A stretch of 62,064 nt of DNA, filler included, from Dugesia japonica (Eukaryota): assembly GCA_001938525.1 (NCBI GenBank). It is 6 parts of 6 records of this genome, joined end to end, with 100 filler letters (N's around TTAATTAATTAA, not from the genome) between each part and the next. Parts side by side here need not be neighbours in the genome. Positions count along the whole stretch, not along the records: positions 1 to 10,415 come from MQRL01589592.1; 5 more parts are not named here. One strand, 5' to 3'. Numbering within the stretch: the stretch's first letter is position 1; each line of letters begins with the position of its first letter. Below, in pieces: positions 1 through 62,064 of the stretch. The translations under genes were made by a program, and so were the position numbers. The notes under the pieces were generated by a model that saw only the letters and a program-made list of their open reading frames with translations, had not been told where the DNA came from and ran no database searches.

Positions 1-53
<53 letters not shown>

Positions 54-70
54 TTAATAATAATAATAAT
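1..70. repeat. (TAA)n microsatellite
   Basis: Direct TAA run, degenerating to about position 150. Confidence 0.95.
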
Positions 71-1585
71 ACTGGTAATAATAGTGATAGTAATAATGAT
101 AATAGTGGTGGTAGTAATATATTAGTAATAATAATAGTAACGATAATGAGGATAATATTCTTAAATACGGGTAGAAATACTATTAATTGAGACCATAAGG
201 TTGATAATAATCGTGTACTAATTATAATAAGAATGGCACTACTAATTAATGTCAAGGGTGATAGTAGCCAATAGGAATATTAGTAAAAATAACTAAAAAT
301 AATAATAATAATAATAATATTAATGAAATAAGTTAAGAAAACATTTTACAAATGTTGAAATTGAAACTAATAAAATTTACAAATGATATAACCTACTATT
401 GTCTGATAACTGCGGCTGGTTCAATAAAAATTCTTCGATGGAATTAAGATTTGCTAGAAGTTTCAGGATATAATTGACCTCGACTTAGCTTTGAACGATT
501 GAAAATATCGCAAAGAATGAATGATTTGTCTTTATTACAATCTGCTTTATATAAGGTTTGATTGAACAGATTAGGCGGCTGTTGTGAATACCCGATAGAT
601 AATAGCCAGAGAGTTTCAAAATGTTGGGGTCAAAATCGTTTTTCCAAAGGACAATTGCTGCAAATGGCTTGGGACTATCTTCGTTCTTCTGTTGCTCGTA
701 TTCGGAAAACCGTTGTCTATAATTACCGCTAAAATTTCTGAATTTAATTGTTTGATGTTTTTGTTGAGAAGAATACGGCAATCCAATCGAGTAATTGAAG
801 TAATTATCAAAAAGGATTGGCTTCAAATTCGCCAATTGCCGCAATTATTTGAGAAATTGAAGTTTCTAGTCGACTAAATGTCGTAATTATTGAAAATTTG
901 GATTGAGTGTAATTATGGCTAGTTGATTCAATGAAATAGTTGAGATGGTTTTTTCTTTTTAGGAAATTTAAATATATCGCACAAATGTTTTTCTCAAAAT
1001 TAAAGGATAAATTTGTATAACGTTGCAGCCCCTTTTATAACTTTACTTCAGTCTTGATCAATTACCGATTGATGGATTAATGTGATTTAATTAGGTCATT
1101 TTTTGATATTTTGATTCTAGAATTTTTGAATTTATTTCTTTTTCCGATTAATTTCCCTTCATTTTCTAAAATATAATTGGTAATTTAAATTTTCCTTCTT
1201 TATCCGGAACATTTTGAGGGTTTTTGTTAGAAACTTGTAGAAATTTCCTTAATACTAACTTGATGTATTAAATAATAAATTATATTTTTTCGGTAACTTT
1301 TATTCATTAATCGGTTTCTCTTAGTTATTGATGATGATAAACGTAGGATGAGTAATCCAAATAGATTATACCGGAGCCCGTTCAGATTCGGCCCCTGATA
1401 CGATGTGAATAAATTTCCTTATGTTGGGATTTGGATTGAATTGCATTGATTTGAATTAACTTGGATCTTGAACGCAGTTATCAGATAAAAATAATAAAAA
1501 TGTACACTATTATTATTATAACTAGACATAAAGATTTCATAAATACAAGATAACTTAATGTTACATAGTTTTTTCAACGAAACTT

Positions 1586-2155
1586 TCAGACGAATGTTTC
1601 TTCATAGCCTAGATAGTAGCTACATAGGTCGACTGGGATTTGACAAATGGGTGGATTGGATTGATGCTGTTGGAGGAAGGCTTGATGGGTACTATCATGC
1701 AAATATTCTAAGTAACGTATTTCTTCTTTCTCTTCTAACTTCCTCTCGAATTCAGATTGTAGCTCTGTTCCTTTTTAAGTAAGCTCCTTCACTTCTGCTC
1801 GTAGTCTTTCGATATCCTTTTTTTTCTTTTCATCCCATTCTTTTGCAACTCGTAACTCCCTATTGCTTACGATATATTTCCTCAGATTTTTGGTTGCTCG
1901 TTGCATAATTTGCTGGGCCAATCTGGCATCCAATCTATCATTTTCTTTATTTGCTGCTATCAGCCTACTTTGTAGGTTCATTTCAGACCACATTTCTGAT
2001 ATTTGATGTTTCGCATTGGTTAATTTATCTGCATTTGATTTTAATCTGCTTAGTTTTCTATGAGCCGCCTTTAGCTTGGTTTAGTCTTCCACATTATCCT
2101 TTCTCTTGTCGGTAGTCACAACTTTGTTTTTATTGTAACCCCTGAGTAAAGACAT
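1586..2155 (-). pseudogene. Decayed 190-codon coiled-coil ORF of unknown family
   Basis: CAG|ATG at 2158-2153. One frame MSLLRGYNKNK...MWSEMNLQSRL...KGTELQSEFERKLEEKEE...EETFV* with two in-frame TAA (2083-2081, 1777-1775). Charged heptad-like composition. Confidence 0.55.
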
Positions 2156-4049
2156 CTGTTTACTAAACGATGAAAAGACAGAAATTAATCATAGTCCTAT
2201 CATTGCATATTTCTTTAGTACACTCTTGGGCCTTTTAATTTTCCTAGTGATCTCAATCATTTTCACATTCAAACATTCAGTTTATCCCATTTATACGTTA
2301 GATCATTATCTCTTTCATACAATTTTCTGCTATTTTTGCATTAGTGGGTTGTCAAATCAGCACTTATTTGATTTCATTCATAAGATTTCTTTTTAGTTCA
2401 GATTTCTTTTACAATCAGGTTTCATTTACTTTTAGTTATCAAATTGGATTCATTTTTTTATTTCATTGAAAGTTATTTTACTCATATATTTTATTTTATT
2501 ATATATTTTTTTGTTTGTTTCGTGCACTCCGACTTCAAATCATTAGAAGTAAGATTGATCATATTAGGTTGAGAGTTATTTTATTCATTTATCATTTTTA
2601 TGGCATTATCTTTTTTATCTGTACGTCTTAACTCCAAAATAAAACATAATTATATTTCATCGTATTACTTTAATCATATTTAAGATTACTTAGTCCAAAA
2701 AAATAAAATAAAAAGATTTAAAATTACTTCTTCCCTGTTTTGAGTTAGCTTATATCTCCGATAATGTTCAGATTTCTCCGATTCTCGAAATAATTTTTCC
2801 TTTTACCTGATTCTCGATATAATAATTATAATGATAATAATAATTTTGGGGTGAAACACCTGGTACGAAAAATAAAAACGGCGGTAGGTAAAGCCGAAAG
2901 TGAAAAGATAGTCACCAAATGGGGAAAGAAGGAATCCAGACAAACAAAAGTCACAATTCATGGAAGGAGAGAATAATTTAAAAAAAAAACTAAGGTTGGT
3001 TACAGCAAGAAACAACTCAGAAATAAGAAAGCCAAAAGGAAGAAAAGAAGTAATAGAAGCTATCAGCCAGATAAAGAAAATAATGAATAACAATTAGTTC
3101 ATTAGGCAAAACTAAGAAAACCATATTGAACAAAAATTGGAGAAAGAGAAAATTAATTAAAGGAATTAATTAATGAAAGAAAAACGAAATTAAGTTTAGA
3201 TCAGAAAAACAAAGAAATGAACATATAATTAAATTTATGAAGAAAATAAAATAATTTATTTAATAAAATAAATCATATGAATAAATCATATTTGTCAAAA
3301 ACAAGAAAAATGAAAGTTTCCGCTTGAGTTAAAATTGGCAGTTAAGAAAATTATGGATAAGAAAAAATCGGNNNNNNNNNNNNNNNNNNNNNNNNNNNNN
3401 NNNNNNNNNNNNNNNNNNNNNNNNNNNNNNNNNNNNNNNNNNNNNNNNNNNNNNNNNNNNNNNNNNNNNNNNNNNNNNNNNNNNNNNNNNNNNNNNNNNN
3501 NNNNNNNNNNNNNNNNNNNNNNNNNNNNNNNNNNNNNNNNNNNNNNNNNNNNNNNNNNNNNNNNNNNNNNNNNNNNNNNNNNNNNNNNNNNNNNNNNNNN
3601 NNNNNNNNNNNNNNNNNNNNNNNNNNNNNNNNNNNNNNNNNNNNNNNNNNNNNNTACTCGTCAACAAATTTAATACTGGATCGCAATTTATCGCAAGAAG
3701 TAATGATTGGTTTTTAAAAAATGTGTTATCCAACAGTTTCCGACCTCAAACCTTATGGAAAATTCATAAAGGTTAAAAAACCAATAATGTTGGGGTTCCA
3801 CCTGAGCTGATGATGGAGAGAAAAACTGGCCGTGGAAAAAACGGCCCCATCAAGAATTTAGATCTAATGTCCCCAAATTATATATTCAGTGTAGAGCGGT
3901 TGACCTTCAACTTCATGTGAGGTTCACACTCGTACACCTATGGTTTGGGTCCGTAGTTATTTCCCTATCATTTTAAAGTATCAAAAAATAAACACAGATT
4001 GCTAATAAATTGTATTGTTTCTATACTACATTTCATCTAGAGCTCCCGG

Positions 4050-4385
4050 GTCTANCCACGGGGTGGCTCTTCGGGTATGAAATCGAATACTAAATGGTCA
4101 TCCTCATCGTTCCTGTTGAGACACGATTCATTGCCTAATTGGTGGGACAGTTCGGCAATATACCGTTTCAAAAATTCGACCTTGTGTTGCAGGAGTTGTT
4201 TTGCCTGCTCGGCTATGTCGTTCTGCTTTTGACTATTACATCTAATTTCTTAATCAGCTTATTCCTTTGAGCCAAGTGTTTTAAAAGAGCACTCTCGGTT
4301 TGAAGTTTGAGATATCTTTCCACAAGTAATCTTTGGATGATTCGATGGCAACGACTTAACCTACTTGGAAGTCTGATGCGGGACA
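4050..4385 (-). pseudogene. Small unknown ORF with one frameshift (cassette gene D)
   Basis: TTTCAG|TG TCC CGC gives SRIRLPSRLSRCHRIIQRLLVERYLKLQTESALLKHLAQRNKLIKKL, then a frameshift to KQNDIAEQAKQLLQHKVEFLKRYIAELSHQLG...FIPEEPPRG. Confidence 0.45.
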
Positions 4386-4550
4386 CTGAAACAATGGGAA
4401 TATTAAGGAAAAATTATCATTATATTAGGCCTAAGGATGAATATCCAATATTTATCATTATAACAAAAATAAAAGAAGATTAGTAAACAGAGATAACTCT
4501 CGATACATGAACGATATTTATTTANGAAGATGGGATATTACAACCATAAT

Positions 4551-4912
4551 TAGTGACGCGCCGTTTGGGTACCTTTATCAATCATGAGAGGCTCCAAAGG
4601 CATTTTTTCTTTAAGGAGTAAGATGTCATTGACCAGTATATATATATTCTCGGTCATGGTCGGACCGGATCATTTCTGCGAAGGATTCAACCTGCGACTT
4701 TCAAACTCTCTCTTGAGCGTGCGAAGCCTCAATTTCCTTTCGAATGTGGACACATTTGGCCCGGTACCGCTTCACTTTGGCATTAGCGGTAGCTATCTCT
4801 GACTCAAATTGCCGTTTGGCTAATCGGTACAATGCCCAAGACATCTCAATGTCTTCACTGGATTCCCTTACTTTCTTCTTAGGGGCTGGGGGTTTATTTA
4901 ACGATGAGTGCA
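4551..4912 (-). pseudogene. Small unknown ORF, EMSWxLYRL family (cassette gene C)
   Basis: TTCCAG|TG CAC start; HSSLNKPPAPKKKVRESSEDIEMSWALYRLAKRQFE...; in-frame TGA at 4703-4701; frameshift in an (AT)n run; ends MIDKGTQTARH*; AATAAA downstream. Paralogue at about 8556-8758. Confidence 0.55.
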
Positions 4913-5096
4913 CTGGAATAAAGATATTATGACTATTAAAATACCTTCAAACTAAAACATTAAAATCCTCAAAAATTTCAACTCTTATTTGATTATTTTT
5001 AATAATACCCGTCAACAACAGATTTAAAAAGTACGTAACTAAGTTAATTTTTACACAGAATTTATTATCATTAATAAAACAAGAGTCTATTTGAAA

Positions 5097-5516
5097 CTAT
5101 GGATTTTCGTTGAGTAGATAAGGCGCATTATTTTCCGCCGACCCACCAATTGCACTATTCCGCAAGTCCCAAAGAGTGTTGCTTATCTCTCCACTCAATC
5201 TCATGCGGGGTGGCACGTGTGCGGCCGATATAGGAATAAATTCAGGCCCGTCACGCCACACGGTCGTAACCTGCCTGGTTTTCGGATCGGAGACGGTGAC
5301 GCGGTGCAAAACTTCGTGGGTCCGGTCGAGACCTCTTCATTTGTAAAAGGCCTGGCGTTCGGACGCAGCCCATTCTCTTTTATTTTCCGCGTCGAAGGAA
5401 GTCATGTTGGAGTAATCGGTAAGGACCCCCGCATTACGATCATGAGGATTCCAATACCGTTTAAAAGTTACCCTATTGGTTCGACGATCGAATAGCGTTT
5501 CCCAATAATATTCCAT
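5097..5516 (-). pseudogene. 139-codon unknown ORF, RxxFxRxWNP family (cassette gene A)
   Basis: ORF-track entries 5337-5534 and 5097-5309 share a frame, split by one TGA at 5339-5337. ATG at 5516 lies one base after acceptor TTTGTAG. AATAAA downstream. GC well above flanks. Confidence 0.6.
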
Positions 5517-7708
5517 TCTACAAATAATAAACAAAATTTTTGGTTTAATTTACGGTATTTACTTGGCTTCCTAATAAATATAGCAATCAAAGTACATTTT
5601 CCTCCATTTAAAACAAAATCAATTATCTATTTAGTTTACCCCTTTCTGATTTAAAGTTCAGCTAGCGAAAACAAAAAAAAATCAGTGACGTGGCTTATTA
5701 TTGGGTTTATTCTATTTCGTCAATAACATTGTAATCAGCGCATAGTAGGAGGGTTATTTTATCTATCGAATTAGTTGAAAATTAAATCACTTGCAAGAAA
5801 TCAATTCATTGAAAAAAATTGTCTAATAGAAAATATTTTTTCATTTGGGTTCAAATGATGATAAACATTACTGATGATAGTATTACTATTAATAAATGTT
5901 AATAGGAATCATATGTGCTTAGGATGAGGCAAGGAACATTTCACTTGTTGTAATAGTAATATTTATCGTAATAACACTGCTACCGGTACTAATAAATACC
6001 CGATTGTTGTCGTCGTTAAGGTTGATAAAGAAAAATTCACTTTTATGAACAACGACGTTGGAATAAGCTAGTGATAATTGGTATAGAAGGGTGAACTGTA
6101 TTGTTAATTTGTTCGAAATTAATTACGATTATATATCTAGTTCCTGTTTTAATTTACCGCTCTTGAGTGTTGCTTAGTTACCCAAACACAACTTCTATCA
6201 CGTACAACCTGCTGCATACATATCGACAATAATGATGCGATAATGCAAGTGGGCAAGAGAATTAGCCATGTGTGTATCGGTGACAGCATTTTGATACATG
6301 TCTTATTAGTGTATGACAGTCTGAGTAACGCCGATTTTGCTTGATATTGATGCATACATTCATTTCAAGGTTTAATGCAACACGACAGTCGCTAAACAGA
6401 CGGTTAAGCATACCTATGAAAATTTTATCTCGAAGATTGTGTTATCAAATTTACGACCGGTTTCTATATTCAGTTATTCATGGATGTAAAGGCAGGTATG
6501 GCACGATTTCCTCATTTTGCCGTCGCAATAAAGCAGAAAATTGGGTATGCATTGATCAGAACCAGCATGTCCATTTGAGGCTGAGATTTTTAGGCTACTG
6601 AATAATAGGGTCGTAACAAAGATTTTAGCGCGTAATATTTATGAAAATAATGACACATTCACTTTGAACATTTATTAGTTAACATCTATGAAATTATTTC
6701 GATAAAAAAAAATTTCTTATTAGAAAAATTATAAACTCGTTGCTTACTAATAGATTGGGCTATGATTCTGGCAACGGGTTGAACACTGACAAATTGGCAT
6801 TTCAGAATTGAGAATAATGGATTGATTTTGATTTGGTTCTCCTTTTAAATATAGTAATTAATCACAAATAATTTTCTTTTTNAGTTTACTTTGGTCTCGT
6901 GCTCGGTTTCCAATAACGATAGTTTACTTCTTTTATTTCTTTCTTTAAACTGATAATATAGCGTAATATGTCTTTCACTCTCGTAATTAAATCGAAGAAA
7001 AATGGTTGTTTTATAGAATAATTTTTTATGGACTTATGTAGCATACCAAATGCAACTCGATATCATTGCTATTGGTTGTCTAATTTTAATTAAAATTTCT
7101 TCGATTCTATTGGTGTAGCCTTGGATTTTTACAAATTTTTGACTATTTTCCGTTTCGCCATTGGCGTCTATTTTTGGAGTGACATGTGATTGTCATTCCT
7201 TTGTTTTATTTTTATTTTCAGATCTCTTATTGGCCCAATCTTCAAATNCCTGTGGAAACTTTCTGGATGGTGGTAAGATTTTCTTTCATCCAATTCTTCT
7301 CTGATTTTCTTACCAGAGGTCGCTGTGATTATGCAGAGTAGAGGTAATCACCGAAAACCAATTTTCGACCAATTTCAATTTATTTTTCTTTTAAATTAAT
7401 TAATTTTTCTACAATTAATAATTATTTACTGACATTAATTTCTTCTGCCGTTTATTATTATTTTGATAATTCCCTTTAATTATTGGCCTTGGTGTGAGCT
7501 AACTTATTTCACCCAAGATCTTCATACTCATCTTCTTTTTCTTTTGGCCTTTTATCATGTATTTTAGCATATTCTGTCCATGATTGATTATTCGTAGTTG
7601 ATTATTATAATATGACTACTGTTCTTCATGAGTTTTCTTTGCTAGTAGCCTTCCGCTTATGATTTGGGCCCTTGGCATTGCTTTCTTTTTAATCGGGTGT
7701 TTCACCCC

Positions 7709-7763
<55 letters not shown>

Positions 7764-7813
7764 NNNNNNNNNNNNNNNNNNNNNNNNNNNNNNNNNNNNN
7801 NNNNNNNNNNNNN

Positions 7814-7866
<53 letters not shown>

Positions 7867-7870
7867 TTAA
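7709..7870. repeat. (TAA)n microsatellite spanning a gap
   Basis: Direct repeat either side of an N run. Confidence 0.95.
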
Positions 7871-8555
7871 TAATATTAAGGACAATATAATATGAGGGAG
7901 ATTAATATTAATCACGAGTAGCACTAATAATTGAAATTCTACTATGTATTAATAGTACGAAATTTACGTGTAATATTGGATCACACGTTGATGTAGGTAA
8001 TTCTGAGCGTTAATTAACAGACCAGCATCTAGATGAGCATGGTATAATTACCTAATTACTCCGTCGGCGTGTTGGGTGCGGAACTTTACTTAATAATAGT
8101 GCCGATAGAAACTGAAATCTCTTTTGATAGCTTTAACATTAACAACCATAGCACATATAAACCCAAGGTGGAATAATAATAATGTGGCTTGTTAACTTCC
8201 TGATTTTTTTCCCTGACGATTTCTGAGCGTTCTGAGCAAATTTATTTCCTTTTTTCAGATATTCTTCCTTATTAATTCCCTTTTGTCAGATTAATTAATT
8301 AATTTTCTTTATTAATCTCAATTTTTTTTTGATATTTTAAATAATTTAATTATAATTTATGATTTCTCTTAATTGTGGGGGCCTAACTGCTATCTTCCTT
8401 AATATCTTTTATTATTTTCTTGTTATTTTCTGTTTTTCTTTTATATTCTTCTTATTTCCTAATAATTTACTTCCCTTTTCTTGAATTAAATTTGTTATTA
8501 ATTGTTGACTGACCAGTTGCCGACGGGGCCACGTGATATTATTTCTTCACTTTGA

Positions 8556-8758
8556 TTATGATTTTTTCTTATAGCTTTTATACTTGGCCTTTTCTGTAGC
8601 ATTCTGAGTCTCCCAGTTTCTTTTTGAGAGCCGGTATAATTCCCAGGACATCTCCTGGTCATCACTATCTTTGGAAATTCATTGAGACGCTTACGTGTGA
8701 GATTTGAAGAAAATTTAGCTCGGTTGTTATTCATTGTCAATGATTTATTTATTTCATA
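8556..8758 (-). pseudogene. Paralogue of cassette gene C
   Basis: A frame not shown in the ORF track reads DSDDQEMSWELYRLSKRNWETQNATEKAKYKSYKKK, matching SSEDIEMSWALYRLAKRQFESEIATANAKVKRYRAK. Acceptor TTTCAG ends at 8759. Confidence 0.6.
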
Positions 8759-8908
8759 CTGAAATACTATTTAGAGTGAAATATTAGGTTAAAAATATTT
8801 CCATTTAAGCGACAATCATTAGGAGTGTTTAATTAAGACACAACTTCTAAATTAGGAATGACAGCTTTTTTTCTAATTGGTGCTCTTAGCCAGTAGTTAT
8901 ATTCATAC

Positions 8909-9078
8909 CTTTTTAAACGGTCTACACATCATTGGAAGACGCGGTTCTTGGGGGGAGGAAATTCTGGTGGTCCACCAGGATGCCAACGTCCCAGCGGAAC
9001 GGGTTCTATACCCTTTGAAAAACGATACGTCCATTCATGAGCGAGTAAAGAAACCATCTGTAATCTCGATTGATTTTG
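8909..9078 (-). pseudogene. Paralogue of cassette gene A
   Basis: KINRDYRWFLYSLMNGRIVFQRV*NPFRWDVGILVDHQN aligns with EYYWETLFDRRTNRVTFKRYWNPHDRNAGVLTDYSN. Acceptor TTTTAG ends at 9079, donor GTATGA at 8908. Confidence 0.55.
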
Positions 9079-10166
9079 CTAAAATTAACAATACGTGAGT
9101 CATAAAAATGATGAGAGTAGCCACATGATAATAAGCATAGCCATAATCACAACTTTAATGATGAAAATAAGAATTGTACGATATCAAAACGAAAATTAGA
9201 GCAGGAGTGGAAGTAATAGTATTAATAATAATAATGATGAATATGATGACAGTAATAATAATACTAATGGTCGCTATATTGATTTTAATAGTATTAATAA
9301 AAAATGAGTAATAATTATATCAATAATGACGACAAAGATGATACTAATAAGATTAATAAATAATAATATTGGTTATCAAAATAATGATAATAATAATAAT
9401 GATCTTAGTCAGGGGGAGGCTCTATATATAATGCCGCTTATGATGTTTATGAGAACACAAAATCAATCCAGTTCTCTGACCAACGAAGAGTCTAATAAAT
9501 ATTCATAATCGCAGTCATAAGCCGTCTAGTGGATTATTTAGTAATTTTAACCACAGTAGTCTCACATCCCCAGTAGGCATGCAAATAAACCTAATTTAAG
9601 TTAAAAAATATATTCGATTAAATTAAAATTAATGGTTTATAATAATTACTGTAAATGTGCAAAAGTGGTAAAACAAAGTCTCCTATTCTAACTTACTTCT
9701 GCTTTTATAGCAGATTCTGCTGCTTTTGTGTCCCTCTATTCCTCTCTGCGAGTGAATCGTTTTAAGATTTTCCATTTATGATTCACTCGTGGACTTTTGG
9801 AGCTTTCTTAATGGCTCTCCGAGCATCATCTTATTTAATTATTGCTTGGGTTTTCTACAATAATTTTAAAGGTCTCAGCCGGTTATTCAGCAGTCTTATT
9901 TATTTTCTGAGTCGACTGACTCTTGTAATTAACAAGTATATATGATTAATATTTTAATATTAATACTTATAGCTTGTAAATTTCATTCTTTATAATTCTT
10001 GTCAACTTTATACTTCGAATAATTCTTAAAATTTATACAAGGTTGAACAATTTTTTTAACTATTTTAACAATTTTTTAAGTGGAATTTTATGTATTTATT
10101 TTTTATAAAAACTTAAGGATAATAATTTTGATGAGATAATAAATGAAATGAAAAAATTGTATGATT

Positions 10167-24655: not shown

Positions 24656-27600
24656 CTAAATTACATGATTTAAATTAGTACATAAACTCTTCAAATCAAT
24701 ATGTCTCAGTTTAATAAATCCATCTGCGCTACAGTTTATTATTTTATTGTCACCAATAATATCTAAACTTTTGACAGCAAGATCACCTTTACTAAAAACT
24801 GAAGATTTAATCGGTTCACTTCGAAAGGTTTCAAAAAGTTCTTGATTATGTAATTGCCAAATCTTCAACAAATAAAATATAAATAAATTCATTTTAAAAT
24901 TTACTTTTATATGACCATCAGCGGCCGAGGATACAAAATAATATTGCAATGGGTCCAATTTTATTGCAGTTATACAAGAGTCATGGGCTTGAAAGATATT
25001 TTGGATTTTGTTTTGCCTAATATCAATTAATGCAATTTCTCCTTTTCTCGTACCTGCTAGAATTAACTCATAGCGTGATACATAACACAATGCAACAACT
25101 CCAATTGCTAATTGTGGATCAGATAAATCTAAATAAATTATAAAACGAATCAGAATGGAACAACAAATTACTTCGAACTTGATTTCTTCCTGAAGGTAAT
25201 AAAACGTCCCACATTGAAATATTTACAGAATTTGTATCAAAATTCCCACTACCAACTGCATGTAATTGATTAACTGAAGATAACCCGTGCAATGTTGAAC
25301 CTCCGGCGGTTGCAACTAATGAGGAAGAATTTATAAAACAGAAGTCCAAAACTCCTTTATGTGGACATCGAGTTTGCTACAATAATAAAGTAACATATGC
25401 ATACATAACTTGATTTCTTACAAAATATTGAGCCCGAGAATTATCAGCATATGAAAAATGAAATAATGAAAAATTTCCTTCTGAGTCACCCATTCCAAAC
25501 TAAATTAATAAATTCAAAATAATATTTTATTATATTACGAACTACACGTTTCATTACGCCGAGTTAAACATAAGCTGTCTTACAAACCTAGAAAATCCTC
25601 TCCAAGACACTGAGTACTTGGATTGGCCAGCAAATAGCTGTAAAAGAACATAAAAGGAAAAATAAGAAAATAGTATGTATGACCTATCTTCATTTAAGGG
25701 GACACTCTAAAAATAGCTATTCACAATAATGTTCAAATCATCCAACTCACTCTACGTGTTGATTCACTTATTACCAGGTTTTGTACCTTCACTGAATATA
25801 GTTATGTAAGGTACCTCGGTTGGCTTCAATGCCAGTTGCGGGATAACAATGGAGCGCTTCGTAGCAAACTGAGAAGATATGTTGTTACACCTTGCTTAAG
25901 GCTAGAAACTCACAAAGTACTATCAAGCACGTAAGCTATCAAACACCAAGGCAGATATCAAAAACCAAGTAAGTTTTCATATTTTACAGAAATTACTTAA
26001 GGAGTTTTGGGGTTCTATGAAAAAGAAAAAATACCATAATAGTAAGATAAAAATATATTTACAGAGAAAAATGGTGATCATTACATTACACAAAATTAAG
26101 GTTGATGGAAAAATATTCAATCCATTCAACATAAATATTCTTGTTTCTCCATANTCTTCCTTTAACAAAATACTTCTTTAGATCATGGATGCTCAACCCG
26201 CAGTAACACGTTTTAGATTTACATATTTTGAAGTGTGGAAAGTTATTAATTATACCTTGTCAATTAATTAAATAAAAATAATACTTTATTTCCATTCGCA
26301 TCAAAATTTAAAGAAGTAATTTTTCCTTTTTGTATAGGTGAGTAAGTTTTAACAACAGCTGCATCAATAGACCATTCAAAAACACCAACTTGGCCATTAG
26401 TGTTTCCAGTTATATCTTAAATAAATTAAATTTTTTATAATTTATAAAAAAAACTTACAGTAAGGTAACAATGGGTGAGATTTTATAATTTGTATACCGT
26501 GTATTGGTCTCTTGAGAATCTAAATTTTAATTAAAACACAAATGATGAAAGACAAAATATTTCAGTAGAAACGAATTAATAAAATAGAACTGTATATATT
26601 ATAAAAGTTCAAATTGTTAAAAATCCTTCAATATAAAAATACACGATAGCTTCAATAAATTTATTGTACATGCTTCAATAAATTGTTAAAATTACAAATG
26701 CTAATATACAAGGTGGTCTATAAGTAACCGAACAATAATTATTATGTAATAAACAACACCGATTATCGACTACTCGTCACTCTTAATATAAAACTTGGGC
26801 TACAAACGATGTACATTTTAATTGGAAGAACATGATCATGCTAAAAATTATTATTTGTCACTTTTAACAATAAATAGGGTTCGAATACTTCTGGACGACT
26901 TTCTCATATTTTGAATGCTATATTAGACATAGTGAAAATATTGAATTGTTTCAAAAGCCTTCACAGAGTCGTTCAAAACATGTATAGGTTGGTTTGAACT
27001 TTGAAGCCTGACATTTAGCTGATTAAGATGCATCATCATATTCGACAAAGAAAGGAGGACTTTTAGCAAGGAGGGAGGTTAGTAGTTGCCATGGTAACTG
27101 TGACTTAATATTTACTTGATTGTTTTGTAGCTATTACAAAATCATTATGTAATCACTGGTAGTCATCGCGTAATACATTTTATATTACGCAGCCATTACA
27201 TAATAGTTCCACAATCATTCGAAAACCATATCCAGATTACACAATTATTACAAAATCATTCGGGAGCGGGTTTCTGGTAACGCGATAGTTATGTAATAAT
27301 TACGAAATAATAGCTCTTGTGGTTACCATGGAAGCTTATGAAATCCATTGCAAAAAGTAATGTTTGTAAAAGCATTTCTTTTCCTCGAACTTTGTCATGT
27401 TACACATCATTCGACACAGAATTTACGCCGATCAAGAATATCAAGTTAAAATCGTTGGAACGTACACACAACAAATTAAATGAGAAATAAAAATGATTCT
27501 TCAGCAAACAAGTACATACAATGCGAATACACAGTTAAGTGACTGATGACTGCACTTTGTGCCCTCACAGAGGATTAAAGTGTGTATTTTGCGGAACGTT

Positions 27601-30600
27601 CGCACAAAGTGTCTACACTGAGACAAATTTCCGACATACATTAGAATACTCCATGGACAATATTACCATTAAAATATTTTCCAGGTGGACAACAACATTT
27701 AAATACTCTCAGAGTTAGATTTTAATATATTTAATAAATAATTTTAAATATTTAAAAATAATTCGAATGTTCTGAAATTATAGTATGTAATCAAAAAACA
27801 TGAATGATTCATGAACTTTATCATATTATATAATCGATACATATTTTATACTATATACACACATGCATTAAAGTAACTATTACTATATAAACCAAATCTT
27901 GCAGCTATTATTTATTATTTAAAAATGAAATCTACTACACTTACAAAGTAAAATGCGTCTTCACTTGATATCAAATGTGGAAAATCTCAAAACTAATACA
28001 AATACGAAATGGTTTTATAAATTTAAATGGAAGATAACAATATCTATGATATTTCAGACAGACATATGATTACAGTGGAAATCATCGGCTACAAGAAACT
28101 TGAAAACAATGTTGAACCTATTAGGAAATTGAAAAGTATTTAAAAGATGGATTAAAATTGTTATCATTATATTATTTGTCTTATTACTTAATATTATATG
28201 CGTAAATAAATTCATTTAGAAAAACGTCTTGTAGGCTCTAGGTTGGCCACCCTGTCTGAGTTGATTTTAAAAGTAATATTCATATAATATTTAAAATTTA
28301 AAAAAATAAAATCTTTAAAATAAATGTTCATTAACTAAAAAATTTTATAATACTAATCAATTAAATTTTGACTTAGAGCCTTTACTCTTATTGAGTAAAT
28401 ACAAATTTTAAAATAATACAAATTTATTCGGACAACGTTGAAATTTTACTTAATTTACCGTTTTAATTGCTTTACGACTCATGTCTAAAGCCAAATCAGA
28501 TGATAACTCCGATAAATATGTCGCATTATAATTTAACTGTATAATTATAAAATATATGTAGTTTATAATACCGTCAATTTTAATAAAACTAACCACATTA
28601 GAATTAGAATAATCTTGTGATGGTAAATTTATAGTTGATCCGAATGTTGGTGAAATTAATAAAAAATCACTAGTAAGACATTTTTCAGAATTTTTATTTT
28701 TTTCTGTTCTATACATAAAAAAATAAGAGAATCGTAAATTTTATAAATTACTCTTTAATTGTATTTAGCAAATAATCATAATCATGTTGATACCAATTTT
28801 CTGAGTCAGCAAAATGATTAACACTTAATTCAATAATTTCTTTGGATGTTGATGTAACCAATAAAGAATTATCGACCTAGAAATGTAAAATTATTATTTT
28901 ATAAAAATGTTTAACTTGATTAATAGCCATGGAAAATAAACTCTCGTGCTCCTTGTGAATAATACGAATATTTTTATAAATTTCGGAATTATATGAATTC
29001 AACAATGTATCACTTTGATCCGTATCTTTTTCCTCGAATAAAAAGAAAATAAGAATAAAATTAATAAATAATAAACTGTTTGATAATGTTTTGAAACCAA
29101 GAAATGTTGAACAAATATTGGCTGTAACTTCTTTTTTCTAATCAAACTGAACCATAGGCGTTTCATTGATAAAGAAATATTAGTACGATTCCTATAGAAA
29201 ATAAGAATAAAATTTTAACCAAACAAATTAACACATAACTCCAAATATATGACTAATCATAATATGACGGTAAAAAAATCTGAAAANNNNNNNNNNNNNN
29301 NNNNNNNNNNNNNNNNNNNNNNNNNNNNNNNNNNNNNNNNNNNNNNNNNNNNNNNNNNNNNNNNNNNNNNNNNNNNNNNNNNNNNNNNNATTTTAGTTAA
29401 GTTTTTAAAAAGTTCTAGAATTACATTTCTAAAATGGCTATTTATAAATAAAGATTAAGCCAAAAATTTGAAAAATGTATCATCCATATTTTAAAATTTT
29501 CTGACGCTTCTGATGCTCCGTCAATGCATTATGTAAACTTATTACAGCTTTTTCAAGATCACTATTAAGTTTTATTCCAACACATATGAAGAATAGTTAC
29601 GAGTTTGTTAAACGAATTTGGTTTATTTGATATAACAAATCGATATGGATAAACTTCCATTGACGTACCTGAAAATGTCATCAAAGATATAAAGAACATA
29701 CAGATATTCCAGANNNNNCCAACAATGATTCCAAATATCTCATCAATTTGTGCCTTTTCTCTGATAGCATTTTTATCGAAGAACAATTTGTTAAAAAAGG
29801 TGGTTTTTCGTCTCCCATTCTAGCTATAATTTTTATGAACTTCATTGCAAGTCAAATAATTCTCAAAGAAAATGCGTCTATGGTTTAGATACATAGAAGA
29901 TATTTTCTTTGTTACTAATTCTCCTTCAGAAAATATTTTGGAATTAGCCAATAGTATTAATGATAACATCAAATTCACTTTAGAGAAGTGAATTCGTTTT
30001 CTAGACACCTTAATCCAAAAGAAATCTTGTGAAATATGAATTACCCGATTATATATGAAACCATTTTACAGTAGACATATATTTCCCTGGAATAATAATA
30101 CTACCAAACAGCTTTAGGAAAAATCAAGGTTGAAAGAATTAGAGACTATCTTCAAATGAAGAAATGAAATTGACTCCCCTCACGTTGATTAAAAATAAAT
30201 TCCTATAATTCTTATAATAATTAAAATAAACTGTAATATAAAAATATCCAATAAAAGGCGAAAAATTTGGCAAAATTTTCTAATTATCTGGAATTCTAAT
30301 CAATCGAAAAGTTAAATTCCTGAAGAATAATAATCGAAAATTCGGATAACTAACAAAAAAAGAAATAAAAAGATACATTTTGATCGAAGCTTTTAATTTA
30401 ATGAAAATTCAAATGAAATCTAATATTTTCTATTGAAAAAATCATTAGGCCTCTCGTTTTTTTGTTAATGAAATCGGTTTAAATAGAATGAACACTATTA
30501 TGAAAATTTCTTGATACTTTTTTTACATTTCAAATTGAGTTCATGTTTATTAAATAAAATCATTAAATTATTTTTATTGATTACATGTTGATGAAAATAG

Positions 30601-56449: not shown

Positions 56450-57770
56450 CACATGATAAGATATTCATAATTGAAAAGAATTGATTAAATCTTAATATTG
56501 AACTTAATCACTTTCTATTGGCTAAAATTATTAAATAATAATTATTTCTTTATAAACTCCTTCTTAAGAAACTTCTAAGTTTTCCACATTTCTTTCTAAT
56601 CGCTGTCCATTTTCTCCTTGTAATACATACAAGTTTTCGTGAATTTTCTCAATTATTCGATGAGGTCCTTCAAATCTGTCTTTAATTTTATTTCTTGTTT
56701 CTACCTTGATGAGTTTAAAATTGCCCCCTTTGAATTATCTGTTAATAATGACGTCTGAAGTGTTTTCTTTAGTTCTATCTGAAACATCTAACTCATACAA
56801 CGTTTCTCTCATAATTTTCTTTTCAAATACGATCTTAGCTGAGCTCTTTCCAGTCGTCTTCTGCTTTTTTGCGTTCATTGTAAATTCTATTTTCGATAAA
56901 AGATCTGCTCAGTCTGTTATCTTTCTTTCCTGAAGTGCTGCATTAATTAAATTTTGAATTGTTCTGAACTGTCTTTCAATTTGTCTGTGCATTATAATGA
57001 TAGGGACTCGAAAAGCAAAGTTTAATATCTAGCTTCAGTGCAAACTCTCCAATAACTGTCTATTCAAAAGCTTTTCCACAATCTAGTTTTATCTCTCTTG
57101 CTCATTCAAATCTCAATATCCACTTTTCTAAAATAGCTCTTTGTATTGTTGAATTGTCTTGTCTAGGCAATGGTATAAGAACCAGATATTTACTGTACTG
57201 GTCAATTATTTCAATAATGTATTTTTTCGTCCTTTTGTTTCCCCCATTGGTCTACATATATCTGTGAAAATGACTTCAAACCAATTGGTTAATATTGTCA
57301 TTACTTTGGTCTTCTGACAAATTTCGCAACTACTAACTATCTTCTGTATTTGGCTCCGCAAATTCTTCACAATGTATTTGTTTCTCATATATTCGTACAC
57401 CTTTTTAGCTCCTGCGTGAAATAATAATTTATGTATTTCTTCTATTGTTTCATGTATTTTGACATACGAAATTTTTATTTTCTTGATTAAATCTGTTTCC
57501 TCAGAAAAGTTTAAATGCTCTTCTTTTTCCTTTGCATCTACGTTCAGTATTCTCGTTTTAATCTTCCCTTTCTTGGCATCTTTATGTGATATTTGACATT
57601 TTACACATACTTCAAATCTTGGTCTAGATAACATATCTGCATTACCATGTTGAATTCCTTTTCTATATTCCAAAACCATGTCTAGACTACTCAGATAATT
57701 AATCCATGTCTGGAATTCTGACGTAGTTGGTTTCTTCGTCGTCATCATAAAAGTTAGAGCTTCGTGATCC
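56450..57770 (-). mobile_element. Ty3/Gypsy RNase H-integrase remnant with PPT and LTR start
   Basis: DHEALTFM, YRKGIQHGNADMLSR, IHKLLFHAG...CEICQK, FEVIFTDIC, KDRFEGPHRI (GPY/F), PPT aagaaggag. Confidence 0.9.
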
Positions 57771-57982
57771 AGCCCCAAAGACCTGCAATCACTTCTGAAC
57801 CAAATATTCATGGGGATAAGGTCAAGTGTAATTATAAATTTCAAGCTGCTACCACCTAGTGAAACAATAACCACGAATGTGGATTGTGCTCTTTTTGGAG
57901 AGATTAAAAGATGAAATTGAAAAAAAGTGGCCAGCTTTAACAAACAGAAATGGAGTCATTATTCATTAGGATAAAGCATGGC
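57771..57982 (+). mobile_element. mariner transposase fragment
   Basis: KLLPPSETITTNVDCALLERLKDEIEKKWPALTNRNGVIIH*DKA; compare mariner ELLP.G.TI...YC.QL.RL...I..KRP.L.NRKGV.FHQDNARP. Confidence 0.85.
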
Positions 57983-60900
57983 AGTAGTAGGATAGAACCG
58001 CACAAAATCCCCCTTCCCTCTGTTTGCAAAAAGTGGTTTGAAAATTCGTAATGTAAATAGGCTGCGGCACACATTTAACTGGCCCATAATTTTTCTAATG
58101 TAAAAAGTCGACTAGCAAAATTTATGTGCGATTGCATAACTTTTGCTCGTACTTTTTGTGTTCAGTTCGATTTTTTTTGAAATTTTCAGATGTTTTCAAT
58201 TTTTGAAAAGTTTACCGATTTTTTAGGAAATTTTAAATTTTACGCGTAATTTTTCTATTTAAAAAATTAGATTGGATTAAATTTTTATTCAATTAATTTT
58301 CACCGGTTTATTTAAGAATTTTTCTCCTGTGATATTTAATATTGTATATAAGATTTTGCATAGATTCATTTAAGAATTAATTTAAATTTTTTGTATATGA
58401 ATTTTACCCGGTAGTATTTTTTCATAGATTTATTCTTGAATTTTTTCCAGTGGTATTTAATTTTTTATTCGATTGATTTTCAGCCGGTTATATTTTTACA
58501 ATTGATTTTAATTAGATTAATTTTTATTTTATTTTTGTATATAAGATTTTAACATAAGTTGTTCTTAAAAGTTTTGCCTCTGATTAAATTTAAATCTTAC
58601 CTTGGTACTATTTTAGTGTTTTGCCCCTGTTCAATTTTTAAATGTTTGACTTAGTTAATATTTTTTCCTGGTTTATAACTATTTCAATTTTCGAGTTCAT
58701 TTGTTACATTACGGTTCAATGTATGTATTTGGTATAGAATCTGATTGATTTAATTAATTTATGAATTAAGTAGGTTAACTGAATTAAGCATATAGATTGG
58801 ATATAATTAATTGTATTTGATGAAAACATTAAATTAATTAATTATGGTGAATAGTAAAATGGATACAATGTATTAGCTTTATGAGTGTATTATAGTTTGG
58901 TCTGTTTGGATTTTTAAGTGTTTTTTAGTTTAATAAGTTTATTTGACTTAGATTATAATATGCATTATGCTTGCCGTATTCGTTAGCGTTATAACTGTAT
59001 TGAATAGAGTAATCAAATAATCCTGATAAAATAAATAGGTCGAATGTATTGAATGCTTTTATATAATTACTTAAATTTGATGAATCAATACATTATATTG
59101 AATGTATTAAGTACATTGAGTATATTATAGGTTTTAATTGTATCAAATAATTGAATGTGTTAATGTTTTTTTGAATGTAACAAGTTAATATTAACAAGTT
59201 GGTTTCGAATTTTTATGTTAGATTATAATTTTTCATGTGATTTATGTAACTTTTATATTTGGGTTAATATCTTCTATGATGAATTTCAAATTTTTACATG
59301 TTAGATTACAATTTAGTGTGCCAGATTCGAATTTTTATGTTTGGATAATATTTTCTTTGTCAGATTTTGAATTTTTATGTTAGATTCGTGTGACGTAGTC
59401 TAATTTTTTTGTTAGATTCGTGTGACGTAGTCTAATTTTTTATGTTGAGATAATATTTTCTATATCAGATTTTGATATTTTTTATGTTAGATTACAATGT
59501 AGTGTTATGGATTCTAATTTTTAATTTTTACACGTTAAGCATTAATTTCTGGGTTCGATTACAATTTTAGTGTATTGGTTTTGACTTTTTATGTATTGGT
59601 TTCGATTTTTGTATGATGGACTATAATTGTATTGTATTGGCTTAAAATATTTGTATGATTGGTTAAAATTTTAAAAGTTTAATTGTAAATTTTGTGTAAT
59701 GGTTTTGAATTTTATCACGATAAGTTATATTTTAATTTATTGATTTTGAATTTTTATGAGTTGTCCTGAAATTAAAGAGTATTGGTTTCAAATTTTAACA
59801 TATTGGTTTAGATATTTGTATGATGGATTATAAATTTAATGTTATTGTTACGATTTTTATTGTGTTGACGTGAAATTTTATAGTGTTGGTTTAAAATATT
59901 TGTATTATGGATCAAAATTTTATAAGTTTGGTTTTGAATTTTTATGTATTAGTTAAGATTTATGTATGATGGGTTATAAACCAATTAATTATAATACCCA
60001 TTTTTATTGTACAAGTAGAGAACATAATACTAAATTCATGATGTTATAAAGCTATACTATGGTGTTGTTAATCAAAAGGCAAAATATTTCATATGTTCTA
60101 CATGTGACAAACTTTATCTTGGTGATTATGATAATTTTTATAATAACCAATATCATCATTTAAATTTATTTAAATCTAAAAAGAAAATTTTATTTGATAA
60201 ACTTATCAATGGCGTTGTTGTTCCTTCTAAGAAAATAAAATTAGAACCTTTGCATATTGTCATCAGTGATGATGATGATGATGAAGTTGAAATTAAAGTT
60301 GAAAGTTTAGTAGTTTCTGTTGACGAACCAAATGTTGTTTCTTCTATAAATCTTGTTGCTTCAGTTGAGGATCCAGTTATCGATCTTAATGATCCGAATG
60401 TTGATCCAATTGGTAATTCTTTGGTTATGGATGATGAAATACGAAGTTTTAAGGTGATTGATGAATGGTCTGANGATGTTCCTTTAAATAATTTTGATAA
60501 TGAAAACGGTGATGAAGACTATGTTTTAAATGAGTTTTTAGAAAAGGAAACACAGAATGGTGGTTCTCTTAGTGTTGTTTTTGACGAACCAGTTATTGAG
60601 ACTGATCCTTAAAATAATTACCAAACCGTAATATTAGACGTATCTAAATATAATATGAAAGAAATATTTTTACCTAAAACATTGTTAGAGAACTTNNNNN
60701 NNNNNNNNNNNNNNNNNNNNNNNNNNNNNNNNNNNNNNNNNNNNNNNNNNNNNNNNNNNNNNNNNNNNNNNNNNNNNNNNNNNNNNNNNNNNNNNNNNNN
60801 NNNNNNNNNTTTTTAGATGAAGGTATAAAATCTCTTAATGAAAAAATTGTAATTAGGAGCGAATTTGGAAATAGTTGGATCTTAAATAGATTACTAGAAA

Positions 60901-62064
60901 ATAATTTTAAAATAACTAAATTTTCCGATATTAGTAGGTTGTCAGGAAGTAGAGTAATCGAAACTCCTAAAAACTTGAAAAATAAACATGTAAATGTTAA
61001 CGTTCAAAATAAGGATAAATATTGTTTCATTTATAGTGTTCTTGCTATACTTAAAAAGGATGATATTCCAGATGAAAGAGATAGATATAATGTATCTCAA
61101 TATAAACCTTTCATGCATGAATTAAATTATGATGAAAAAGATATGCCTATGACATTGGAAAATATACCTAAGTTTGAAAAATTAAACAGTGTTCTTTCAA
61201 TAAATTTTTTTTCTTGGAATTCTTTTAATACTGATGATATTGATGATGACGATGTATACATGAAACATTCTAATCTAGGTATAATTCATAGGAGTAAGGC
61301 TCCAGGAACTACAAAAATTAATCTTTTATTACTTGAGAAAGGAGATAAATTTCATTACACAGCAATAATGAGTTTGAACCGTCTTATGAATTGGGATTCA
61401 AAAGGTAAAATAACGAAAATTCGCTCTATATGGTGTGAAAATTGTTTGAATGGTTTCAGGGATCAATAATCTTTAGACACTCATATTCCTCTTTGTAGTA
61501 GAATTCAAACTGGAACCACTCTATATACAATGCCATTGGATCCTGCTTTAGTGTTTAAAGATTTTTCTAAAACTCTAACAACACCTTATGTTATTTACGC
61601 TGACTTTGAGTCTATTCTAGAGATGGATGAAAAATACCTTCATAAACACTTACCTATTTCTGCTGGACTTTTACAAGTTAATAACTTCACTAATGAATTC
61701 AATTATAAACAGTTTATAGGTTTAAATTGTGTATTTGAATTNTTGAAAGCTGTTGAGGAAATAAGTAAGTCTGTTGCTAATTATTATAAACTGAATGGAA
61801 ATAAGAAAATTATAATCACCCCATCACAAGTAATTCATTTCAAAGCTTCTTAAATTTGTTATCTGTGTAAAAAGGATTTAAAAGACCCGGTTCGTGATCA
61901 TGATGATTTCTTCCATCAATTTAGACAAAGATCTATAGCTCATAATGGTCTTGAACCGCTTACTTTCTTTGGAATTCCAGATATGTCATCGGCTTCTGCC
62001 TTGATGACTTTAACTGATCCAATTCAGTTATTGACTGATAATGACATGTATACTTTCTTTGAAG
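57983..62064 (+). mobile_element. Polinton/Maverick left end (runs off the window)
   Basis: AGTAGTAG terminus at an abrupt break in the mariner sequence; about 2 kb of non-coding, minisatellite-rich subterminal DNA; then pPolB. Confidence 0.8.
60034..62064 (+). pseudogene. Protein-primed family B DNA polymerase (Polinton pPolB), disrupted
   Basis: N-terminal CSTC and acidic region; SGSRVIETPKNLKNK..VNVQNKDKYCFIYSVLA; CENCL..H...C; PYVIYADFESIL (Exo I); CYLC...VRDH; LLTDNDMYTFFE. Stops at 60610, 61467, 61851. Confidence 0.9.

Follow-up and report, generated by a model that had tools for sequence, protein, structure and literature searches.

A minus-strand cluster in planarian DNA appears to be built as a set of small ORFs, each headed by a splice acceptor, behind one short leader. 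The window in which it lies, that is the whole stretch of Dugesia japonica DNA that was analysed (62,064 nucleotides), is AT-rich animal DNA with a G+C content of about 26%, a planarian-type composition (>70% A/T in the available text of PMC11410931). The cluster consists of ORFs A, B and C, a stretch E and a further ORF D, all short and G+C-richer than their surroundings. The reading that we favour, and credit with slightly better than an even chance, is that these small acceptor-headed ORFs, D perhaps among them, are served by one upstream promoter and a short, ATG-free spliced leader, the last base of which completes the A|TG start codon of B and C. Splice-like motifs of high rank stand at the fronts of A, B and C, the frames behind them are open, A and B are each trailed by AATAAA, and sequencing data contain many diverged copies. 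The architecture is real and probably non-random, within a repeat that has decayed. Stops or frameshifts break every ORF of the cluster (A, B, C, E and D) and, judged from its sequence, the A-C unit belongs, in decayed form, to a multi-copy family without a named relative.

As we picture its expression, a single promoter upstream of 5661 would give a pre-mRNA with an ATG-free leader ending at 5563. This pre-mRNA would either be cleaved behind A or B, at the poly(A) signal there, or run on, and the 5563 donor would then be spliced to whichever retained cassette comes last, so that each mRNA would yield one protein. For B and C the join itself would make the AUG, and codon 1 could not be translated from the unspliced form. 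More tentatively, copies may gain, lose or exchange cassettes, and a large mobile element may carry the array as its accessory module. First exons common to several proteins are known already. In an array whose start codons took a single base from such an exon, translation would be strictly tied to the choice of acceptor, cassettes would be portable between copies, and the ORFs would be invisible to ATG-based gene calling, which may explain the near-absence of relatives in databases.

Leader exons, acceptors and reading frames

The donor GAAGCCAA|GTAAAT at 5563/5562, preceded by TTTATTAG, is where the first-pass annotation had placed it, and delimits a candidate 8-nt leader micro-exon (5563..5570, minus strand) ending in A. 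The acceptor AGs annotated at 5518, 4913, 4386 and 2156 are likewise all present. When the 94 AG sites between 5570 and 3900 were ranked by a rough score of our own (T-richness plus YAG), the best four were those at 5517, 5570, 4912 and 4385, at the heads of A, of the 8-nt exon, of B and of C, respectively; the site before the 8-nt exon ranks second, and on a similarly rough score of our own the 5562 donor ties for first among 97 GT sites. The terminal A of this exon adds little, because A precedes GT in five of seven donors of a host WD40 gene in the window. From this donor to A the candidate intron (5518..5562, minus strand) measures 45 nt, which had been called a typical size; this is borne out by the WD40 gene, in which six of seven resolved introns measure 39-57 nt (ten junctions were tried, and two of the seven resolved ones have a second solution).

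The leader probably has at least one further exon upstream. An acceptor at 5661, absent from the first-pass annotation, scores 0.97, the best value in 5900-5571, and opens a candidate 22-nt exon (5640..5661, minus strand) that would end at a weaker donor GT at 5639-5638. Both candidate exons are ATG-free, and the sole two ATGs between 5661 and 5563 fall in the candidate 69-nt intron between them (5571..5639, minus strand). The TGACGTGG site reported upstream of the leader is in place at 5686..5693, but on the plus strand, the strand of the genes reading CCACGTCA; we take it to be a putative CRE/G-box-like motif. On the minus strand TGACTCACGT at 9093-9102, just upstream of a paralog of A (A'), echoes the CACGT motif upstream of the leader. 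Apart from this echo and AT-rich 7-9-mers, the regions upstream of A and A' show no similarity.

ORF A (5097..5516, minus strand; 139 codons, with an in-frame stop at codon 60) has its own ATG and belongs to a family without a name. ORF B (4550..4912, minus strand; about 120 codons, with a stop near 4702 and a frameshift near 4640) and ORF C (about 4036 to 4385, minus strand; with a frameshift near 4225 and stops near its end) both start AG|TG. As had been proposed, the A of the leader joined to this TG is in frame with B, giving 69 further open codons, and with C, giving 56. The first in-frame Met of B is codon 24, and there is no Met among the 56 open codons of C. Residues 16-23 of B, ahead of Met 24, include three identities with its paralog B', and a basic patch lies further up. 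We rejected a 7-nt exon at 4951-4945 followed by a 32-nt intron before B, as the intron is below the first-choice host lengths and the join would yield GTG.

Successive ORFs A, B and C are separated by T-rich spacers of 155 and 184 nt, and G+C rises from 22-28% to 37-45% across each acceptor. The spacer of C has no strong donor nearer than 4541. AATAAA had been placed after A, C and D. It does follow the ORF at 5516 (5061..5066, minus strand, 31 nt past the stop of A), but none occurs in 4060-3900 behind the ORF at 4385, and that nearest to D is 282 nt off; a signal also lies 28 nt past the stop of B (4517..4522, minus strand). From the signals after A and B to the next acceptor there are 136 and 153 nt.

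The chance level of the start arrangement was estimated on both strands of the whole window, where 190 acceptor sites score 0.75 or more, ten of them being followed by TG and eight by 50 open codons in the corresponding phase. Only B and C have a strong acceptor, TG and 50 open codons, two cases against 0.42 expected window-wide at a cut-off that was picked post hoc, B and C having scored 0.77. The excess shrinks at looser cut-offs, to 5 against 1.2 at 0.65 and to 15 against 13 at 0.5 with 30 codons.

Behind C lies stretch E (3770..3964, minus strand), which is decayed, coding-like, headed by an acceptor and present in high copy; its depth of 119-172 in runs X1 and X2 is above that of every other part, and it has no match in Pfam. 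The gap of 62-65 nt between C and E is bounded by GT and AG like an ordinary intron, and E may be a second exon of C. ORF D (1586..2155, minus strand; 189 codons, two in-frame stops, own ATG at its acceptor) is separated from the A-C unit by an assembly gap and a further insertion. The annotated acceptor AACAG|ATG of D (2156) exists but ranks seventh of 65, with a better one, the first of the 65, 7 nt upstream at 2162. Upstream of D at 2200-2840 on the minus strand is a decayed, A-rich, coding-like stretch with 37-39-nt GT-AG gaps, and from its layout D could be the last exon of this stretch and not a part of the A-C unit.

ORF A has a G+C content of 50%, compared with about 26% for the window, and a CpG observed/expected ratio of 1.36. 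A HMMER search with A against 1.84 billion representatives gave three matches, of which P0005 is the sole credible one, P0004 and P0006 being rejected as repeat proteins. P0005, a stand-alone protein of 94 residues, matches residues 1-65 of A at 45% and has its Met start at the same place; its predicted fold has a pLDDT of 53 and it had no usable match in Atlas. None of seven homolog candidates for A, and neither of two for B, was upheld. Searches of the cluster frames against Pfam gave no match above the cut-off, and scans for relatives gave 0/40 and 0/12 in viral contigs (for B and D) and 0/599 and 0/170 in metagenomes. Within the window, a diverged pair of paralogs lies at 9057-8559 on the minus strand. 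Its first member, A' (8833..9057, minus strand), is a distant paralog of A that starts AG|ATG and matches P0005 at 9035-8928 (39%, E 1e-4), and its second, B' (8559..8734, minus strand), matches B at 50% over 40 residues.

ORF B has a basic N-terminal patch, a likely coiled coil and, near its end, DKGTQT. This last motif, at 4562-4579 on the minus strand, fits by its letters the (K/R)xTQT dynein light chain motif; PMC7182775, in its available part, describes many viral proteins as binding dynein light chain through a KxTQT-type motif. With their basic N-terminal patch, coiled coils and KxTQT, the predicted proteins look like regulators of host cells.

Other copies and RNA evidence

Other copies of the cluster are known from the alignment of sequencing runs and contigs to 3700-6800 and 3900-5800. 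The runs aligned were eight of the 24 listed; X1 and X2 look like DNA-type libraries, and X5, X6, X8 and X9 have depths of 1-30. Contigs of six runs contain many copies, which are 5-20% diverged. In X1, where depth is mostly that of other copies, five variant sites lie within 50 nt of the B acceptor (4863-4894), with other-letter shares of 0.68-0.92. Among the variant rows listed for this run, the lowest share being 0.62, none falls at 4913 or 4386, suggesting that within these rows the G of CAG|TG is mostly kept at B and C, as the first-pass annotation had asked of the copies.

The copies may also differ by whole cassettes. A contig of X1 joins 5560 to 4959 (depth 15.9, with 30 letters on the short side); if nothing lies between, this copy would consist of the leader, a 50-nt GTATGT...CAG intron and B, with no A. 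Elsewhere, other copies cease to match near 5557-5560 and 5056-5060, which are the edges of cassette A, and these breaks suggest a modular array. Some copies match through the 45-nt intron as far as 5557-5559. For A, B and C, anatomy and other copies favour the earlier proposal of a shared leader with alternative acceptors. Of the genes, A and B alone have a poly(A) signal close behind them.

None of the eight runs showed a GT-AG junction, whether 5563>5517, 5563>4912, 5563>4385 or any other. The 8-nt exon is too short to align as one side of a junction, which makes this absence weak evidence. Raw RNA runs X11 (6% read) and X12 (25% read) gave seven and five partial reads, respectively, and no junction. 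Two contig records, in runs whose RNA nature is a guess, hint at use of the A acceptor. Record 22 of X8 and record 7 of X5 belong to one subfamily, with five shared variants, 73+17=90 letters at a shared joint and the same internal replacement. The X5 record continues through the 45-nt intron to 5557, and the match of the X8 record stops at 5519 and is followed by 27 unmatched letters. Spliced (X8, likely RNA) and unspliced (X5) forms of a single subfamily would be expected to differ in this way. An end at 5519 is at least as compatible with a partner exon terminating in AG as with one terminating in AA, and the former would create no ATG at B or C. Record 23 of X8 ends at 5639 (depth 2), where spliced and unspliced paths from the 22-nt exon would part, and is a weak hint of that exon.

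Alternative readings of the cluster

The alternative that survives best, although we judge it unlikely, is an operon, in which a polycistronic transcript would be resolved by spliced-leader trans-splicing at each acceptor, a type known from flatworms and nematodes. Flatworm operons of this kind, as presented in the available text of PMC12582326, comprise same-strand genes less than 300 bp apart with an acceptor before each, and the T-rich spacers of the cluster are likewise within this threshold. The 5661 acceptor has no strong donor upstream and could serve as a trans-splice site; an AUG ahead of the 8-nt exon would fall into the frame of A, and one ahead of the 22-nt exon alone into that of B and C. 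However, the flatworm leaders are supplied in trans and end in AUG according to the same text, whereas here there is a cis donor, and an AUG placed directly on the acceptors is out of frame with A, B and C and opens only 14, 4 and 9 codons, respectively. B and C have no AUG of their own at the front, and the TG found there is left unexplained by an operon. An AUG-ended leader also predicts that the match of X8 record 22 should end at 5518, and it was seen to end at 5519.

Rather less probable still is that A, B and C are separate genes, the genomic ATGs of B and C having decayed to GTG in this copy, or the proteins starting at GTG or a later Met, with the acceptors a by-product of T-rich 5' regions. 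B' has CA-ATG where B has CA-GTG, decay is general in the cluster, and another AG|TG look-alike, at 44616, results from a chance join in a broken gag, all of which this explanation can draw on. The ATG of B' (8734) lies 24 nt past an acceptor and its frame differs from that of the conserved block. Decay would need the same change twice at the same codon position, each time yielding a top-ranked YAG. It is made unlikely by the other copies, which mostly seem to keep G at B and C, no majority variant being found at 4913 or 4386 among the X1 rows listed, with depth mostly from other copies. The spacers would also seem short for one promoter each.

The least probable of the three, to which we give little credence, is that a single larger protein is spread over the ORFs as its successive exons, B and C each being preceded by a phase-1 intron: a phase-1 GT at 4572 would join B to C in frame and the C-E gap resembles an ordinary intron, but A and B have stops followed by AATAAA, copies in X5, X6 and X8 continue past the stop of A into the 3' region, P0005 stands alone as a protein, and the 4572 GT is outside the top 18 of 97 donors and within the codons of DKGTQT, where a copy in run X2 matches B up to 4563 before diverging. 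The donor at 8908, a good match inside the complete A-like ORF A', had been held to make such a protein plausible; against this, a splice from 8908 to either of the acceptors nearby runs into a stop within four codons. One-protein splicing is plausible for C and E alone. Anatomy and other copies argue against both cases that the first-pass annotation had named as contrary to a shared leader, namely an ATG decayed to GTG and a single protein with A and B among its exons. The probability that remains falls to chance or to another arrangement.

Known systems and neighbouring elements

By analogy, the cluster works like two known arrangements and is a member of neither. In C. elegans unc-60 (UNC-60A/B) and the cholinergic ChAT/VAChT locus, different proteins share just a first exon (available text of PMC3469465), and the shared-leader reading likewise proposes one locus with different proteins behind one first exon. 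Those are single-copy host genes with two products, whereas the cluster has at least three unrelated small ORFs, belongs to a multi-copy family and would draw one base of the start codon from its shared exon. An own stop and a candidate poly(A) signal per unit, as in unc-60-type loci, would fit A and B; C has no AATAAA and the signal of D is distant.

The adenovirus major late unit, to which the cluster had been compared, splices an AUG-free multi-exon leader to a choice of mRNA bodies, which fall into groups according to their poly(A) site (PMC7851563, available part). Both ATG-free candidate leader exons match the first of these features in their predicted use. The viral unit differs in its size of 28 kb and its 201-nt leader, and the available part of that source describes no start codon made by a join. 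The likeness holds as an analogy, but nothing viral has been shown: Pfam and the viral-contig scans for B and D gave no adenovirus late proteins or viral genes. A thin literature search, which included the available text of PMC2291067 and PMC8722394, found no precedent for several ORFs that owe part of their start codon to a common leader.

The accessory ORFs of Burro retroelements are a possible home for the cluster. Burro elements are giant Ty3/gypsy retroelements present in high copy in AT-rich planarian genomes, with accessory ORFs (PMC6431247, available part). The comparison is one of description; beside the A-C unit, LTRs, gag, pol and known Burro domains are all missing. Neither a mobile-element hallmark gene next to this unit nor an LTR, gag or pol within 1-10000 was found, and the unit is interrupted by gaps and insertions. 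Going further, we consider it conceivable, though on balance doubtful, that the cluster represents an undescribed family of animal mobile elements, in which swappable, promoterless and partly start-less cassettes would sit behind one micro-exon leader, be translated only if their acceptor is chosen, and allow new cassettes to be plugged in.

The window also carries ATT microsatellites, within which lie decayed insertions at 7708 downwards (minus strand), 2845-3370 (plus strand) and about 9650-10000 (minus strand). All three begin with GGGGTGAAACAC and presumably resemble R4/Dong non-LTR elements; on the frames tried they gave no match in Pfam. Two Ty3-type gag remnants, 80% identical and with zinc knuckles, occur at 43255-48100 and 57209-57955 on the minus strand, together with a zinc-binding domain of an integrase. 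Where the gag copy at 44616 abuts unrelated sequence, it has the look of an AG|TG start. ORF fragments at 60034-62064 (plus strand), which had no Pfam match above the cut-off, we take to resemble the protein-primed polymerase region of Maverick/Polinton elements. The 3' part of the host WD40 gene, which we assume to be DmX-like, lies at 24659-29200 on the minus strand and has one relative at 72%.
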